A DNA stretch of 64,000 bases, from assembly GCA_038236695.1 (NCBI GenBank), contig JBBRZM010000001.1, positions 14,177-78,176 of the forward strand, read 5' to 3'. Shown here in pieces: positions 30,032-38,132 of the stretch. Both the position numbers and the translations under genes were made by a program. Positions within the stretch are counted from its first letter, which is position 1. The number at the start of each line of letters is the position of its first letter. Below the pieces are notes generated by a model. The model was given only the letters and a program-made list of their open reading frames with translations. It did not search any database and was not told the DNA's origin. This stretch comes from Acidimicrobiia bacterium. Its GTDB lineage: Bacteria; Actinomycetota; Acidimicrobiia; IMCC26256; JBBRZM01.

Positions 30032-32032
30032 TCAGAGCGTGACCGCAGCGCCGCGCGCAATTCCCCAGTTCGACCAGTACGGCGCGTCGTTGACCATGAA
30101 CGCCGGCTGGTTGTTTCCGATCGAGAATGGGTGCAGCCCCCCGAACGCGTCGAGCGTGTAGCCGCCCGTGCCGTCGGGCAGGATCACTACCGCGCGCGCG
30201 ATGTCCCAACCCTGCCAGTACGGCGCGCCGTGGGTCGCAGGCGGGGCCGGACCGTTGCCGCCGTTTCCGATCTTGAACGCGTGGAGGCCGCCCCAGCCGT
30301 CGAGCACGTAGCCGCCCGTCCCGTTGGGAAGCACTGCGATGCCGCGTGCGATGTCCCAGCCTTGCCAGTACGGCGCGCCGGACGTCGCGGGTGGGTCGGA
30401 GCCGCCCGCGACGCGGAAGGTGTGCAGCCCGCCCCAGCCGTCGAGCGTGTACCCACCCTGCGAGCCCGGGTTCGCGTTCGGCACCACCGCAATGCTGCGC
30501 GCGATGTCCCAGCCTTGCCAGTACGCCGCGCCGCTCGTGTCGGGGGGAGTTGACCCGAAGCTGCCGATCCGAAACTTGTGCAGTCCACCCCAGCCGTCGA
30601 GCGTGTAGCCGCCGGCCTGGCGTGAGATCACGCTGACACCACGGGCGATATCCCAGCCGGGCCACGTCGTGAGGTCGCGAGGATCGGCCGGCGCGAGGTT
30701 GCAGCCGACCGCGAACGAGTGCAGCACGCCCCAGCCGTCGAGCGTGTACCCGCCGGGGCTGTCGGGGAGGTCCGCGCCTCCGGGTTGATACGGGCCCATC
30801 GTCTGACCCAGCGCCGCTTGCACCGCCCGTTGCGGATTGAGGAGCGGTGCGTTGCTCAACGATGCGCCGATCGGCTGGGCAGCGTCGTCAAGCGTCGTGT
30901 ACACCGCGTTCGGTGCTGCGCCTGCTGCCCGCGTGAGTGCTGCGGCGGCCGCGACCAGCGGGGACGACAGCGACGTGCCCGACTCCGCGAGATAGCCTCC
31001 GCTTGCGTGCGCGCCGCAAATCTGCACGCCCGGCGCCGACAAGCCCTTGCCGCTCAGCCAGTTGCCGTAGTTCGAGAACCACGACCGGCTGTCGTCGGGG
31101 TTCGTCGACGTGGCTGCGATCACGCCGATGTCGTTCGCGGGATACACCGGGTCGGTCGCGAATCCCGTGTCACCGTTGTTGCCGGCCGCCGCGACCACAG
31201 TGATGCCGGCATTGATCGCCGCGGCCACGGCGCCGCTGATCATCGACGACGGCTCGTCGGGGCCACCGGAGAGCGACAGGTTGATCACCCGGGCGCCATG
31301 CGAGACCGCGTAGTAGATCGCGGCGCTGATCGAGAAGTTGCTGCCGAGTCCGTCGGCGTCCATCGCGCGCACGGAAAGAATGGGCGCGCCGGTCGCGGCG
31401 CCGGCGATGCCGAGCGCATTACCGGTGGTCGAGCCGATGACGCTCGACACGAGCGTGCCGTGACCGTTCGGGTCCGTCAGGCCATATGCGCCACCCGACA
31501 GGCATGAACCCGACAGACAGTCGGCGCCGACGCCGATCACGCGACCCACGAGATCCTCATGGGCCGCGTTCACGCCCGTGTCGACGACCGCAACGATTTG
31601 TTGTGCGAGCGCCGACGGATTGACGAGCGCGCTCGCAGCGCCGAACGACACGCGATCGAGCGCCCACTGCTGGGGCCGATACGGGTCGGGACCCGCCAAC
31701 ACGTGCATCCGGACCTTCGGCTCGGCCGCGGTGACGCCCGGCGTGCGTCGCAGCTGCGCGACCAGGGCGTCGGCGTCACCCACCGACGGAGCGCGGAACT
31801 GCTCGACTTTGACCTCGGTACCCACGCGTACCGTCGCCCCGACGTCGACCGAGCCGTCGGCGTTCGCGGTGCTTCGTGTCGTCGGAGGCACCACCGGGTG
31901 CGGGCGCGGCGCGGGAGTCGCGACGGACAGTGAAGATGTCCGGGCTGCCACCGGCCCTGCGAACCCGACACAAGCGACAAGCACCGCGGTGAGCGTGAGC
32001 AGGTGTGGTCGCCGCACACGCACCTGACGCAT
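30032..32032 (-). CDS. secreted S8 (subtilisin-like) serine peptidase with C-terminal 5x repeat domain
   Basis: Signal peptide. Catalytic triad contexts VVDTGV (Asp), HGTLVSS (His) and SGTSLSSP (Ser). The C-terminal 240 aa consist of GGYTLDGWGGLH.F...YWQGWDIAR repeats. Confidence 0.85.
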   Translation of the reverse strand: MRQVRVRRPHLLTLTAVLVACVGFAGPVAARTSSLSVATPAPRPHPVVPPTTRSTANADGSVDVGATVRVGTEVKVEQFRAPSVGDADALVAQLRRTPGVTAAEPKVRMHVLAGPDPYRPQQWALDRVSFGAASALVNPSALAQQIVAVVDTGVNAAHEDLVGRVIGVGADCLSGSCLSGGAYGLTDPNGHGTLVSSVIGSTTGNALGIAGAATGAPILSVRAMDADGLGSNFSISAAIYYAVSHGARVINLSLSGGPDEPSSMISGAVAAAINAGITVVAAAGNNGDTGFATDPVYPANDIGVIAATSTNPDDSRSWFSNYGNWLSGKGLSAPGVQICGAHASGGYLAESGTSLSSPLVAAAAALTRAAGAAPNAVYTTLDDAAQPIGASLSNAPLLNPQRAVQAALGQTMGPYQPGGADLPDSPGGYTLDGWGVLHSFAVGCNLAPADPRDLTTWPGWDIARGVSVISRQAGGYTLDGWGGLHKFRIGSFGSTPPDTSGAAYWQGWDIARSIAVVPNANPGSQGGYTLDGWGGLHTFRVAGGSDPPATSGAPYWQGWDIARGIAVLPNGTGGYVLDGWGGLHAFKIGNGGNGPAPPATHGAPYWQGWDIARAVVILPDGTGGYTLDAFGGLHPFSIGNNQPAFMVNDAPYWSNWGIARGAAVTL
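30035..30754 (-). repeat. five tandem ~45-52-aa coding repeats (GGY.LDGWGGLH.F / YW.GWDIAR)
   Basis: The repeats start at residues 427, 474, 527, 573 and 623 of the S8 peptidase. Confidence 0.75.
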
Positions 32033-32126
32033 CCCCGGGCCTCCACGGAGCGCGTTCGGCGCCCACTAATGGTGGTTACTCAGGCAATCGTAGAGGCTTT
32101 CGAGAGCCGGCCGGTGACGGTCCGGG

Positions 32127-32588
32127 TCAGCCCGTCTGGTGCTCGTGGAGATCCACGAGTACCTCGGCGGGATGCACCGGGATATCGGCGACCTCGTAGA
32201 CCTTCGCGATCCGGCCCTCAGGATCGATGAGAAAGCTCAGCCGCTTGGCGAAATGCACTTTGTCGGTGCCGGGCGCGCGCGTGCCGTACGCCACGCCGAC
32301 CTGCTCGTCCGTGTCACAGAGGAGCTTGAACGGGAAATCGAACTTCTCGCGGAACGCGCGGTTCTCCTCGGGCGTGTCGAATGAGATTCCGAGAATCTCA
32401 CAGTTCATCGCCTCGTAGTCGGCGGCCTGATCACGCAGGCCCTTCCCCTCGATCGTTCAGCCAGGGGTGTCGGCCTTCGGGTACCACCAGAGCAGCACCC
32501 AGCGGCCGCGGTAGTCGTGCAGCGAGGTCGGCACGCCGTCGTGAGCGAGGAGCGTGAAGTCGGGAGCTTGATCACCGGGTTGCAGCAT
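32127..32588 (-). CDS. bcp: Bcp/PrxQ-type peroxiredoxin with in-frame TGA at the peroxidatic Cys position (candidate selenoprotein; alternatively a nonsense pseudogene)
   Basis: ATG 32588 through TGA at 32459..32457 to the stop at 32127 gives 153 codons in one frame: ...WWYPKADTPG[TGA]TIEGKGLRDQ... This aligns with E. coli Bcp FYPKAMTPGCTVQACGLRD. There are no other lesions. Confidence 0.6.
32424..32441 (-). promoter_or_regulatory. candidate bacterial SECIS hairpin
   Basis: On the mRNA strand: GGCCUG-CGUGAU-CAGGCC (6-bp GC-rich stem, 6-nt loop with G at loop position 2). The stem starts 15 nt after the UGA and the loop starts 21 nt after it. Confidence 0.4.
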
Positions 32589-32618
32589 TACGTCAAACCT
32601 TCCCGTCGGCGACCGCGA

Positions 32619-34439
32619 CTAAACGGCGGCTGGCCGCGGTGTGGTGTTCTCGCTCGACGGCGACGGCGATGGCGACGGAGCCGGCACGGGCTCTGGCGAC
32701 CGCGATGGCGACGGAGCCGGCACGGGCTCTGGCGCCGGCGCTGCCGCCGGCAATGTGAACCAGAAGGTCGCGCCGCGACCGGGCTCGCTTGCCACCCAGA
32801 TCCGACCGCCGTGCGCCTCGACAAACCGCCGGGTGATTGAGAGTCCGATGCCGGTACCGCGGCGCGAGAGCGTCGCCTCCGGCGCTTGAAAGAACGCCTC
32901 GAACACACGCTCGTGGTCGCTGGGTGCGATTCCGATCCCCTCGTCAGCAACGCAGACGAGCACCTCTTCGGGGCGCGACACCGCCTTGAGGCGAATGGTC
33001 GACGCTCGAGGCGAGAACTTCACCGCGTTGGTGAGCAGGTTGGTGAGGATGCGGCGGAGCGCGGCGAGGTCGGCGTCGACGCGCAAGGCCGGATCGACAT
33101 CGATCTCCAACGCGTGACCCGCCAGCACCGGCGCGAGATCGGTGACCGCGTCGTCGATGCATTGGGCGAGCGAGCACGGCCGCAGGTCGATCTTCACGCG
33201 ATCGGCATCGATCCTCGCGAAGTCGAGCAACTGGTCGATCAGCCGGGCGAGTTCATCCTGGTTATGGGAGGCGCGCCCCAGGAGCTCGCGCCGTTTCTCG
33301 TCATCGAGCTTGTCCCAGTGGTTGAGCACAGTGCCGATGAAACCCTTCGAGGCGGTGAGCGGTGTCCGCAACTCATGCGACACGAGGGCGAAGAACTCGG
33401 CGCGCAGGCGTGCGATCTCTTGGAGCTGCTCTGCCGCTCGACGCTCTTGCTCGTAGGCCTGCGCGCGGGCGATCACCAGCGAGCACTGGTCGGCATAGCT
33501 CTCGAGCAGAAAACGCTCTTGATCGTCGAGTGCTCCCCGCCAGCGGTAACACGTGACGAGCGCGCCGATTGTCTCGTCACCCACGTGCAACGGCACAGTC
33601 ACGAGCGAATGCAGGCCACGCCTCGCGAGCGCGGCACCCAATCCCGCCCGCCAGCGCGGAAAACGTTGCTCGCGCTCGACATCCTCGATCATGACGGTCT
33701 CGCCCGTCGCCATCGCCAGCGACGTCGGCCCGTCGTTCTTGGTGTAATTGGCGTCGCGACCGGACCCGGCAGGTTGCTTTGAGCCGTGCTCGCCATGTGC
33801 CGCCGCGAGGGTGAACCCTTCCCCGCCCGGCAGCAGGATCGCGGCTTCGCTCGCTCCGATCGCGTCGTGCACCGAGCGCACGATCGACTCGAGCGTGGCG
33901 TCAAGGTCGGGTGTGGACGACACCGACCGCAGCGCATCGTACAACCGCTCGAAATGCGCGATCGAGTGGCGGCGCTCGCGCGTGAGCCAGTCGATGAGCA
34001 GTGCGAGCGACGCGAGGTACGGGAACATCATGATGATGATGTAGAGCGGCAGCCGCTGGTGCGGCGCGACACTCCACTGCGCGAGCGCAGCCGACACACT
34101 GCCCGCGGCCGAGAGCAGCAGCCCCGCCCGAATTCCCGAGAGCGGCGTGCGGAAAACAACAGCAAGGGCGAGCGTGAACAGCGCGGGAATGAACAAGCCC
34201 GGGATGAGCACCACGGCGCTGTACAACATGACGACGCCGGCCACGGAGTCGATCGTGTACGCCAGCGTCAGCGACTTGCGACCGATTACCAGATCAGCCA
34301 GCGTCGTGAACAGCGTGTAGCCGCCGACGAGGACCGCTGTTTCGAGCCGGGCACCGCGCGGGAAACCCGGCACGAGCGGCGTGATCACCGCGAACAAGAC
34401 CCCGAGCGCGATGCGGAGTTGGATGGAGCGCCGGTGCAC
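32619..34439 (-). CDS. membrane-bound GAF-domain sensor histidine kinase (no adjacent response regulator)
   Basis: About 5-6 N-terminal TM segments, a GAF domain, H-box FFALVSHELRTPL, an HATPase_c domain, and a Pro/Ser/Ala-rich C-terminal tail. Start set at GTG 34439 because the ORF extension to 34634 overlaps tRNA-Leu. Confidence 0.8.
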   Translation of the reverse strand: MHRRSIQLRIALGVLFAVITPLVPGFPRGARLETAVLVGGYTLFTTLADLVIGRKSLTLAYTIDSVAGVVMLYSAVVLIPGLFIPALFTLALAVVFRTPLSGIRAGLLLSAAGSVSAALAQWSVAPHQRLPLYIIIMMFPYLASLALLIDWLTRERRHSIAHFERLYDALRSVSSTPDLDATLESIVRSVHDAIGASEAAILLPGGEGFTLAAAHGEHGSKQPAGSGRDANYTKNDGPTSLAMATGETVMIEDVEREQRFPRWRAGLGAALARRGLHSLVTVPLHVGDETIGALVTCYRWRGALDDQERFLLESYADQCSLVIARAQAYEQERRAAEQLQEIARLRAEFFALVSHELRTPLTASKGFIGTVLNHWDKLDDEKRRELLGRASHNQDELARLIDQLLDFARIDADRVKIDLRPCSLAQCIDDAVTDLAPVLAGHALEIDVDPALRVDADLAALRRILTNLLTNAVKFSPRASTIRLKAVSRPEEVLVCVADEGIGIAPSDHERVFEAFFQAPEATLSRRGTGIGLSITRRFVEAHGGRIWVASEPGRGATFWFTLPAAAPAPEPVPAPSPSRSPEPVPAPSPSPSPSSENTTPRPAAV

Positions 34440-34542
34440 TCGACTGCGGGCGGGCCCCCAGGTGGGATCGCTGGACGCGCTGAACGCGCGAACCGTCCGC
34501 TGGCGAAGGGAAGCGGCGAGATCCCGATAGCGTGGTCGAGTC

Positions 34543-34624
34543 GCGAGCGTGGCGGAACTGGCAGACGCGCCGGGTTTAGGTCCCGGTGTCTTCGGACGTG
34601 GGGGTTCGAGTCCCTCCGCTCGCA
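34543..34624 (+). tRNA. tRNA-Leu (anticodon TAG)
   Basis: GCGAGCG..CCGGG-TTTAGGT-CCCGG, long variable arm TGTCTTCGGACGT, T-arm GGGGG-TTCGAGT-CCCTC, CGCTCGC-A. Confidence 0.9.
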
Positions 34625-34853
34625 CTGGATCCATAACCCCCTCATGACCTGCTGGTACCCCGGCTTATTGACCCACCGCATGCTGTTTGAAGTTGACCAT
34701 GGCGCCAACGATCAAGGTTCAACGTGCCCGCATTCGTAGCCTCCGCTGGGGTCTGAGTAGATACTGCGTATAAAGTACCCTAAAACGGGCGGCTCGTAGA
34801 ACGGGCGCGGAGCAGTAGGTGGAACCGCGACGATCGCGAGCGTGGGGGAAGCC

Positions 34854-36781: not shown

Positions 36782-37392
36782 CACGCCCGCTCCGCGTCGA
36801 GCACCGCTCGCACGCCGCGCGCGAGAGTGCGGAACGCGCGCCCGCGATGCGAGAGCGCGTGCTTCTCCGGCGGGGCCATTTCGGCGAAAGTGCGGCCGTC
36901 GCCCTCGAGCGGCACGAACACGGGGTCGTACCCAAAGCCCTGCTGCCCACGGGGCGCGTCGGTGATCACACCCTCGACAGTGCCGAGCGCGGCGACCTCG
37001 CGCCCGTCGGGCCACCGAGCGATCGCAACCGTCGAGAAACGCGCGGCGCGGCGTTCGAGCGGCAGGCCCGCGAGCTCGCGCAAAAGCTTGGCGACATTGT
37101 CGGCGTAGGAGGCCAAGGCGCCCGCGTAGCGCGCGGAGCGGACGCCGGGCCGGCCGTCGAGGGCCTCGACTTCGAGACCGGTGTCGTCGGCGATCGCCGG
37201 CTGCTGCACGGCTGCACACAGGGCGACGGCCTTCAACCGCGCGTTGTCTTCGAGCGTGGCGCCGGTCTCGTCCACCTCTTCCACGTCATCGGGCCGCGGC
37301 GCGATCTCGACATCGGTCTGTGCTTCGCGCAGCACGTCGATGATCTCGCGCGCCTTGTCGGGGTTGGCGCTCGCCAAGACGAAGCGCGTCAC
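36781..37392 (-). CDS. rdgB: non-canonical purine NTP pyrophosphatase (RdgB/HAM1)
   Basis: Ham1 family: [29 protein letters not shown]. Confidence 0.9.
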
Positions 37393-38132
37393 GAGCGACG
37401 CGGCTCGGGCGGCTCGGCCAACGTGCGCCGCTGCACGTCGAAGATCTCGCCGATGCCTTTGTCGGCCAGCGTGAGCAGGGTGTCGAGCTCGCCGCGTGAG
37501 AACGGCACGCCCTCGGCCGTTCCCTGCACTTCCACGAAGCCGCCCGATCCGGTCATCACGACGTTCATGTCGACGTCGGCGCGGACGTCTTCGGAGTAGT
37601 CGAGATCAAGGTGCGCCAGCGCGTCGACGATGCCGACGGAGATCGCACCGCACTGGTCGGTCATCGGATGCGCGGGGAGGGTGCGCGCCGCGACCAGGCG
37701 CGTGCACGCGTCATGCAACGCGACGTAGCCCCCGCAGATCGACGCGGTGCGGGTGCCGCCGTCGGCCTGCAACACGTCACAGTCGACCGTGATCTGGACC
37801 TCGCTCATCATGGTGAGGTCGGTGACGGCGCGAAGCGAGCGACCGATCAGCCGCTGGATCTCCTGCGTGCGGCCCGACTGCTTGCCCTTGGCCGCTTCGC
37901 GCCCGGCTCGTTCGGCGGTCGAGCCGGGAAGCATGGAGTACTCCGCCGTCACCCAGCCCTTGCCGCTGCCGCGCAACCACGGTGGAATGCGCTCCTCGAC
38001 CGAAGCCGTGCACAGCACGCGGGTGCGACCGAAATCGACCAGCACCGAACCGGCAGCAAACTCGGTGAAATCACGGGTGAACAGCACCGGTCGAAGCTCG
38101 TCGGGCTCACGCCCGTCCTTGCGGATCCCCAT
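37389..38132 (-). CDS. rph: ribonuclease PH
   Basis: 247 aa: RPDGR-like N-terminus, [20 protein letters not shown]. Confidence 0.95.

Follow-up and report, generated by a model that had tools for sequence, protein, structure and literature searches.

Introduction

Selenocysteine (Sec)-containing peroxiredoxins with a TxxU motif are a known kind of gene, with descriptions going back to 2005. That year's Sargasso Sea survey placed 43 such sequences in COG1225, the Bcp COG (PMC1088965). Subsequently, 12 were reported in the genomes surveyed in 2006 (PMC1794560), and 91 proteins from 78 organisms in 2016 (PMC5029168). A 2026 review lists Sec-Prx with PF00578, TxxU and the motif PxxxTxxU (PMC13188914). 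The bacterial SECIS (bSECIS) model given there has a loop of 3-9 nt, a stem of 4-16 bp, a UGA-to-loop distance of 16-37 nt and an MFE of -7.5 kcal/mol or lower, with a G at loop position 1 or 2 and G or U directly after it (PMC13188914).

Two other described systems are relevant. PrxU of Eubacterium acidaminophilum is an experimentally verified peroxiredoxin with Sec at the peroxidatic position. The SECIS elements of Escherichia coli fdhF and fdnG are hairpins that follow the UGA closely on its 3′ side, within the ORF, and the G-U of their apical loop is set at a fixed distance from the UGA.

Full-text searching for literature that pairs Acidimicrobiia or Acidimicrobiales with selenocysteine brought up no more than a preprint on Actinomarina and one incidental paper. 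The preprint records selA, selB, selC and selD in all 84 complete Actinomarina genomes, Actinomarinales being another order of the class (bioRxiv 10.64898/2026.04.03.716425). No specific Acidimicrobiia member of the Sec-Prx family was found in the literature searched, and the extent of a Sec-peroxiredoxin clade in this class appears to be undocumented.

The locus described here lies in a 64,000-nt stretch of DNA from an Acidimicrobiia bacterium, referred to as the window. By published description it resembles the Sec-Prx family (PMC1088965; PMC1794560; PMC5029168; PMC13188914) in having UGA at the peroxidatic Cys position of PxxxTxxU, an AhpC/TSA fold, assignment to a Bcp-type COG and a predicted bSECIS just downstream, inside the coding region. 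Cys-containing homologues are widespread in both cases. The clade to which the window gene belongs differs from those descriptions in being large, in occurring in Acidimicrobiia and in lacking uniformly the resolving Cys at +5.

Results

One reading frame continues across a single internal TGA

Direct reading of the minus strand from 32588 to 32127 gave one open AhpC/TSA (Bcp/PrxQ-like) frame of 153 sense codons, as had been claimed in an earlier note made from the letters alone. Its sole internal in-frame stop is the TGA at 32459..32457, in the context YPKADTPG-[TGA]-TIEGKGLRD. Features of the locus are collected in Table 1.

Table 1. Coordinates of features at the peroxiredoxin locus and of the AhpD-like gene in sister genomes.
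Feature	Position	Strand	Details and basis
Predicted Sec-peroxiredoxin gene, complete, Bcp/PrxQ-like	32127..32588	-	153 sense codons + terminal TGA 32129..32127; AhpC-TSA match; Bcp alignment; nearest structures
Start codon ATG	32588..32586	-	read from sequence
Shine-Dalgarno-like GGGAAGG, 9 nt 5′ of ATG	32598..32604	-	read from sequence
Stop TAG of upstream kinase ORF	32621..32619	-	read from sequence
Active-site motif P37-K-A-D-T41-P-G-U44 (PxxxTxxU)	32457..32480	-	translation, alignment
In-frame TGA, predicted Sec codon, residue 44, peroxidatic position	32457..32459	-	TGA in 73/80 related loci; same in Logan assembly
Predicted bacterial SECIS hairpin	32424..32441	-	5′ arm GGCCUG 32441..32436; loop CGUGAU 32435..32430; 3′ arm CAGGCC 32429..32424
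Arg116 codon, conserved catalytic arginine of peroxiredoxins	32241..32243	-	invariant alignment column
93-aa 'truncated gene' of standard callers, start at internal Met61	32127..32408	-	ORF list; public gene calls
AhpD-like CxxU gene (candidate selenoprotein gene)	L003:9386-9991, TGA 9632; TGA also at L004 9629, L007 9627, L013 3019, L018 9629		

The list of open reading frames covers just the last 93 aa, as the same note had remarked. Its expectation that standard callers would report a truncated gene also proved right, since public gene calls on an identical contig break the gene into 43-aa and 93-aa AhpC-TSA pieces. Fragments of 93-103 aa made up 32 of the 120 best protein-database matches and were 67-98% identical to the window protein. 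Most of these 32 begin at the same internal Met, and three of 103 aa begin ten residues earlier. Also among the 120 best matches were 79 Cys forms and seven full-length JGI proteins with 'TPGW' at the active site. The DNA behind one of these JGI entries has TGA at the catalytic codon; the 'TPGW' entries are therefore a gene-calling artefact, arising from the use of a code in which UGA is read as Trp. The JGI calls concerned (L084:171-635, contig Ga0633492_1072449; proteins P0001-P0004, P0007, P0008 and P0032) are full-length but wrong, and the same gene appears as 93-aa fragments in the NCBI, ENA and Logan calls.

The TGA occupies the peroxidatic position of a Bcp/PrxQ-type protein

For protein searches, Cys was put in place of the TGA. 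The substituted protein matched Pfam AhpC-TSA (PF00578) over residues 4-129, a span that includes the TGA, with E=1.1e-32 and 113 bits against a cutoff of 26; it also matched Pfam Redoxin. All 14 matches among solved structures were of the Bcp/PrxQ type. Alignment with E. coli Bcp was end to end with 40% identity, and in it the TGA aligns with the peroxidatic Cys of TPGC. This agrees with the position claimed earlier, and the E. coli segment quoted in support of that claim was correct. The best NCBIfam model was NF006960 (thioredoxin-dependent thiol peroxidase) with 111 bits, below its cutoff of 140. On these profile scores the predicted protein is a diverged branch of Bcp/PrxQ and not a strict equivalog.

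The features by which a peroxiredoxin is recognised, the PxxxTxxC(U) motif and the catalytic Arg, were all found (P37, T41 and U44, with R116 invariant). E. coli Bcp and the solved Bcp/PrxQ structures 5ENU, 3DRN and 5IIZ have the active-site Pro, Thr and Arg in common with the window protein. The conserved PxxxTxxU together with the invariant Arg116 indicates a normal peroxiredoxin active site, in which the nucleophile would be a selenolate.

Compared with E. coli Bcp, the window protein would have Sec in place of the peroxidatic Cys, and it has Lys in place of the resolving Cys, Lys49 being the residue at +5 from the catalytic one. The resolving Cys at +5 that marks an atypical 2-Cys Bcp/PrxQ is consequently not present in the window protein. 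Among 74 Sec forms the +5 residue was Lys in 46, Gln in 21 and another residue, including Asp, in the rest; Cys was found there in none, as against six of the seven Cys forms of the locus set. The '1-Sec' type proposed earlier from the Lys at this position thus holds for every Sec form compared. At least 37 Cys homologues among the 120 best protein-database matches are also without a +5 Cys. Cys63 was found in just 50 of the 74 Sec forms. Since no Sec form has the +5 Cys, the protein is most likely a 1-Sec peroxiredoxin that would be reduced directly by an external thiol protein.

The parallel drawn earlier with PrxU was upheld in part. Both would have Sec at the peroxidatic position of a peroxiredoxin, and the principle is the same. 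PrxU, however, is not an orthologue and belongs to a different peroxiredoxin subfamily: against its model NF040737, of 233 positions, the window protein scored 52.3 bits where the cutoff is 270.

The TGA is conserved among related loci and both halves are under selection

Scanning GTDB with a single genome for each species turned up 189 related stretches, and the 80 best were taken further. The majority of these 80 loci were from Acidimicrobiia or Actinomycetota MAGs, and a few were from Gammaproteobacteria, including Thioalkalivibrio sp. HK1. At 46-77% identity, the catalytic codon was TGA in 73 of the best 80 loci, TGC in six and TGT in one. No second in-frame stop or frameshift was found in the 80 related loci, so that the additional lesions which the earlier note had named as a sign of a pseudogene did not appear. 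The ORFs were 144-156 codons long, save for one 190-codon frame in L010.

Codon-position differences were compared on the two sides of the TGA among the 74 Sec forms. Averaged over sequence pairs, the differences at codon positions 1, 2 and 3 were 0.257, 0.209 and 0.515 in codons 2-43, 5′ of the TGA, and 0.312, 0.304 and 0.475 in codons 58-150, 3′ of it. The impression that the two halves are equally conserved was borne out by these values. As the periodicity is the same on either side, both halves are translated in frame under purifying selection.

The base itself was confirmed in an independently built assembly. Over the 521 nt compared, a 3.2-kb contig in the Logan assembly of SRR19962014 had the window's sequence without a difference, the TGA included.

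TGA is also the terminal stop in 53 of the 74 Sec-form genes, the window gene among them, and the RNase PH gene in the window ends in TGA, which makes UGA an ordinary terminator in this genome. Because TGA serves as a terminator, the internal UGA must be recoded by its local context.

A neighbour-joining tree with parsimony gave at least 14 switches between Sec and Cys; it was considered unreliable on sequences of 150 residues. One orthologue from Acidimicrobiales (L057:3715-3786) has a catalytic TGC (Cys), Gln at +5 and a hairpin-compatible sequence with 6/6 pairs, two of them G-U. From these features, it may have reverted from Sec to Cys recently, with its SECIS left as a relic.

A hairpin downstream of the TGA is conserved as a structure

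The predicted hairpin follows the UGA after a spacer of 15 nt (32456..32442). It has a 6-bp stem, the distance from the UGA to the loop is 21 nt, and the loop consensus of the family is CGUGAY. The 26-nt segment round the window hairpin gave -10.9 kcal/mol. With a loop of 6 nt, a stem of 6 bp, C-G-U in the loop, a distance of 21 nt and this energy, it lies within every constraint of the bSECIS model. It would share with the fdhF and fdnG elements a place in the ORF close behind the UGA and an apical loop containing G-U. It differs from them in its unrelated sequence, in its simple 6-bp stem and CGUGAY loop, and in having no bulged U evident.

The earlier note had claimed a suitably placed hairpin at this point. 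Folding of the single sequence did not bear this out: the 73 nt after the UGA, folded alone, were no better than shuffles (z=+0.73), and the MFE fold differed from the hairpin. Comparison across genomes did, and it was decisive. An ungapped alignment of 74 sequences was counted in a register-aware manner, with three registers 1 nt apart. A perfect 6-bp stem was present in 70 of the 74 Sec forms, in 21 distinct stem/loop variants. Compensatory changes included G-C to A-U at the base, C-G to U-A in mid-stem and G-C to C-G at the loop-closing pair. In the gammaproteobacterial copies the arms are wholly different (GGGUUC/GAAUCC). When a fixed register was used, 88.5% of cells were paired, and four of the six pairs had changed on both sides. 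None of 500 column shuffles matched the observed covariation, and controls slid along the alignment were 6-59% paired.

Pairing was also compared with that expected from the coding sequence. With protein sequences kept fixed, codons were redrawn at the frequencies used in the family. A perfect stem was observed in 95% of sequences vs 14% after this synonymous randomisation, and the mean hairpin energy was -11.4 kcal/mol vs -7.0. The loop nucleotides double as codons of the Arg-Asp conserved in Bcp, and 72 of the 74 Sec forms use CGU for this Arg. As the loop also encodes this conserved Arg-Asp, part of its conservation is at the level of the protein. RNAalifold on the ungapped alignment, in which the hairpin is spread over three registers, recovered four of the six hairpin pairs with weak energy. 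An Rfam scan of 32100..32700 returned no matching family, only a lone chance match to sucA (E=4); Rfam contains no suitable model for a bacterial SECIS.

The hairpin goes with the TGA, the association that the earlier note had proposed to look for. In six of the seven Cys forms, just 3-4 of the six stem positions are paired, in contrast to the perfect stem of nearly all Sec forms. Thus, the structure accompanies the codon across genomes.

Alternative readings of the internal TGA

Read-through of the UGA with an amino acid other than Sec could result from lineage-wide reassignment to Trp or Gly (codes 4 or 25) or from near-cognate suppression. Trp stands at this codon in the seven JGI database entries; their 'W' is a gene-calling artefact over TGA in the DNA. 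TGA terminates the window gene, 53 of the 74 orthologues and neighbouring genes such as RNase PH (37391). Catalysis would be lost with Trp or Gly as the peroxidatic residue, but PxxxT and Arg116 are conserved, and a SECIS-type hairpin lies at the canonical distance. Such read-through is very unlikely. An extremely unlikely reading is that of a plain nonsense pseudogene, a Cys-type Bcp gene hit by a TGC-to-TGA mutation. The truncated or split gene given by gene callers and the lack of Sec machinery within the window are what a pseudogene would show. The same TGA, however, recurs in 73 related loci down to 46% identity without secondary lesions, codon-position periodicity is intact 5′ of the stop, and the downstream hairpin has been kept through compensatory changes.

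By the automatic annotation in the NCBI, JGI and Logan records, the locus would hold two separate small genes (43 aa, 93 aa) or else a functional protein of 93 aa, truncated at its N-terminus to begin at Met61. Neither fragment is a complete thioredoxin-fold peroxiredoxin domain, and the Pfam match to residues 4-129 crosses the TGA. The 16 codons from the TGA to Met61 are kept in frame in all orthologues, several of which (e.g. L020-L022) are without Met at that place; the two-gene reading is scarcely credible. An assembly or sequencing error, with TGC as the true base, has in its favour the general prior for a single-base difference and nothing specific to this site. Given that the independently built Logan contig carries the same TGA and that TGA occurs in 73 other assemblies from many projects, the probability of such an error is practically nil. 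The conserved TGA, the periodicity on both sides of it, the identical Logan contig and the TGA terminators together exclude, for practical purposes, pseudogene, error, two genes and code reassignment.

Probable decoding of the UGA as selenocysteine and a proposed mechanism

From comparative sequence evidence, it is highly probable that the locus is one gene for a 153-residue peroxiredoxin of the Bcp/PrxQ branch, in which UGA44 would be decoded as selenocysteine at the peroxidatic position. The earlier designation as a candidate selenoprotein is supported by the conservation of the TGA, its co-occurrence with the hairpin, the lack of other lesions and the confirmed base.

We infer the insertion of Sec, its dependence on SelB and the kind of reductant as follows. 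A SelB-type elongation factor with Sec-tRNA(Sec) would bind the conserved hairpin, which has G-U at loop positions 2-3, and Sec would be inserted in place of termination while the ribosome is on the UGA. In the enzyme, the selenolate would attack peroxide and be converted to a selenenic acid. Recycling would probably be carried out directly by an external thiol reductant, e.g. a thioredoxin-type protein.

Sec machinery and other candidate selenoprotein genes

ARAGORN found six tRNAs and a tmRNA in the 64-kb window and no tRNA-Sec, either there or in ~1.3 Mb of related loci. When E. coli and Tsukamurella proteins were used in tblastn, no selA, selB or selD was found in the window or in the ~1.3 Mb of related loci; a SelB match in L079 was a generic GTPase with 26% identity and was rejected.

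A second candidate selenoprotein gene was found next to the peroxiredoxin in relatives. In five sister genomes (L003, L004, L007, L013 and L018), an AhpD-like gene (Pfam CMD, E=2.4e-13) lies directly upstream of the Sec-peroxiredoxin gene. Its motif is N-E-C-H-Y-[TGA]-V-P-T-H (CxxU), with TGA in all five genomes, and it has a hairpin of its own, of 8 bp with apical loop GGUCG, 21 nt after the UGA. CxxU is a known motif of AhpD-like selenoproteins. From its sequence, the pair of AhpD-like and peroxiredoxin genes looks like a two-selenoprotein cassette. With two independent genes carrying UGA at a redox Cys position, each followed by a hairpin at equal spacing, it can be argued that the lineage decodes Sec. 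The Sec machinery reported from Actinomarinales lends this further indirect support. The AhpD-like selenoprotein gene is absent from the window. In another locus (L008:2563-2973), the upstream AhpD-like gene matches in two pieces, residues 1-49 and 104-201, and the Sec-containing middle is missing; the arrangement suggests a deletion remnant.

Tandem second Sec-peroxiredoxin genes are predicted in two gammaproteobacterial loci (TGA at L044:10736 and L048:6759), ~500-600 nt after the first. These paralogues read WWYPKAGTYG-U-S[VM]EGRGFRD and have an identical hairpin, GGGUUC-CGUGAUC-GAAUCC.

Screens for further candidates were carried out on the window and the fetched loci. A scan for TGA with a hairpin behind it whose loop contains GUGA gave no in-frame match beyond the peroxiredoxin genes and the tandem paralogues, and a GC3-based screen of the window gave no second convincing selenoprotein gene. 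Most of what a screen of the fetched loci for conservation flanking TGA gave was noise, produced by ORFs out of frame in high-GC DNA; manual inspection left one real candidate, the AhpD-like gene. Of the other candidates inspected, some were stop/start overlaps of the ATGA kind (RNase PH with the gene after it), some were ordinary ends of genes (esterase, thiolase) and the rest lay out of frame (L068).

Implications for the clade and its annotation

The current understanding of selenoproteins is unchanged by this locus. It indicates that an uncultured lineage would decode selenocysteine and rely on selenium for part of its defence against oxidative stress. We hold it to be an evenly balanced possibility that these genes form a previously undescribed, class-wide '1-Sec' Bcp clade. 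Such a clade would comprise ~70 species-level lineages, mostly uncultured Acidimicrobiia, and some Gammaproteobacteria would have copies related to it laterally. Within the clade, gain of Sec would go with loss of the +5 Cys, the apical loop of the SECIS would be drawn from the Arg-Asp codons of the Bcp motif, and one subclade would have the two-selenoprotein cassette with the AhpD-like CxxU protein. If this is true, Sec use would be common in a class for which the literature found reports it in one order only.

In every public record examined, the gene is either split (43 aa/93 aa) or given Trp at the catalytic site. Owing to this mis-annotation, databases do not show the residue chiefly responsible for peroxide scavenging in a widespread Acidimicrobiia enzyme. 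The 74 natural variants of a compact predicted SECIS hairpin overlapping conserved codons should be useful for training predictors of bacterial SECIS elements and selenoproteins.

Genomic context

In the window, the peroxiredoxin gene is flanked by a GAF-HisKA-HATPase sensor kinase gene (32619..34535) and a gene for a secreted S8 peptidase (30032..32032). Synteny of the flanking histidine kinase and S8 peptidase was not kept in the other loci. A wider gene order, RNase PH, Ham1-like, esterase, peroxiredoxin and epimerase/DUF1731, is common to the window and an Acidimicrobiia-type MAG contig, and this supports orthology. RNase PH ends in TGA at 37391, and this stop shares an ATGA with the start of the following gene (37388-37394, minus strand); the same overlap occurs in related loci. 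The gene after RNase PH has a Pfam Ham1p_like domain in the syntenic MAG locus L085.

Minor features were observed in and around the sensor kinase gene. Its 3′ end (32622-32760, minus strand) encodes a Pro/Ser/Ala-rich tail with a near-perfect tandem duplication of ~36 nt (cagagcccgtgccggctccgtcgccatcgc...). At its 5′ end, the long minus-strand ORF 32619..34634 overlaps with a plus-strand tRNA-Leu(UAG) at 34543-34625, so that the start of the kinase must lie downstream of 34543. The segment made up of this tRNA and the kinase stands where relatives have the thiolase and AhpD-like genes.
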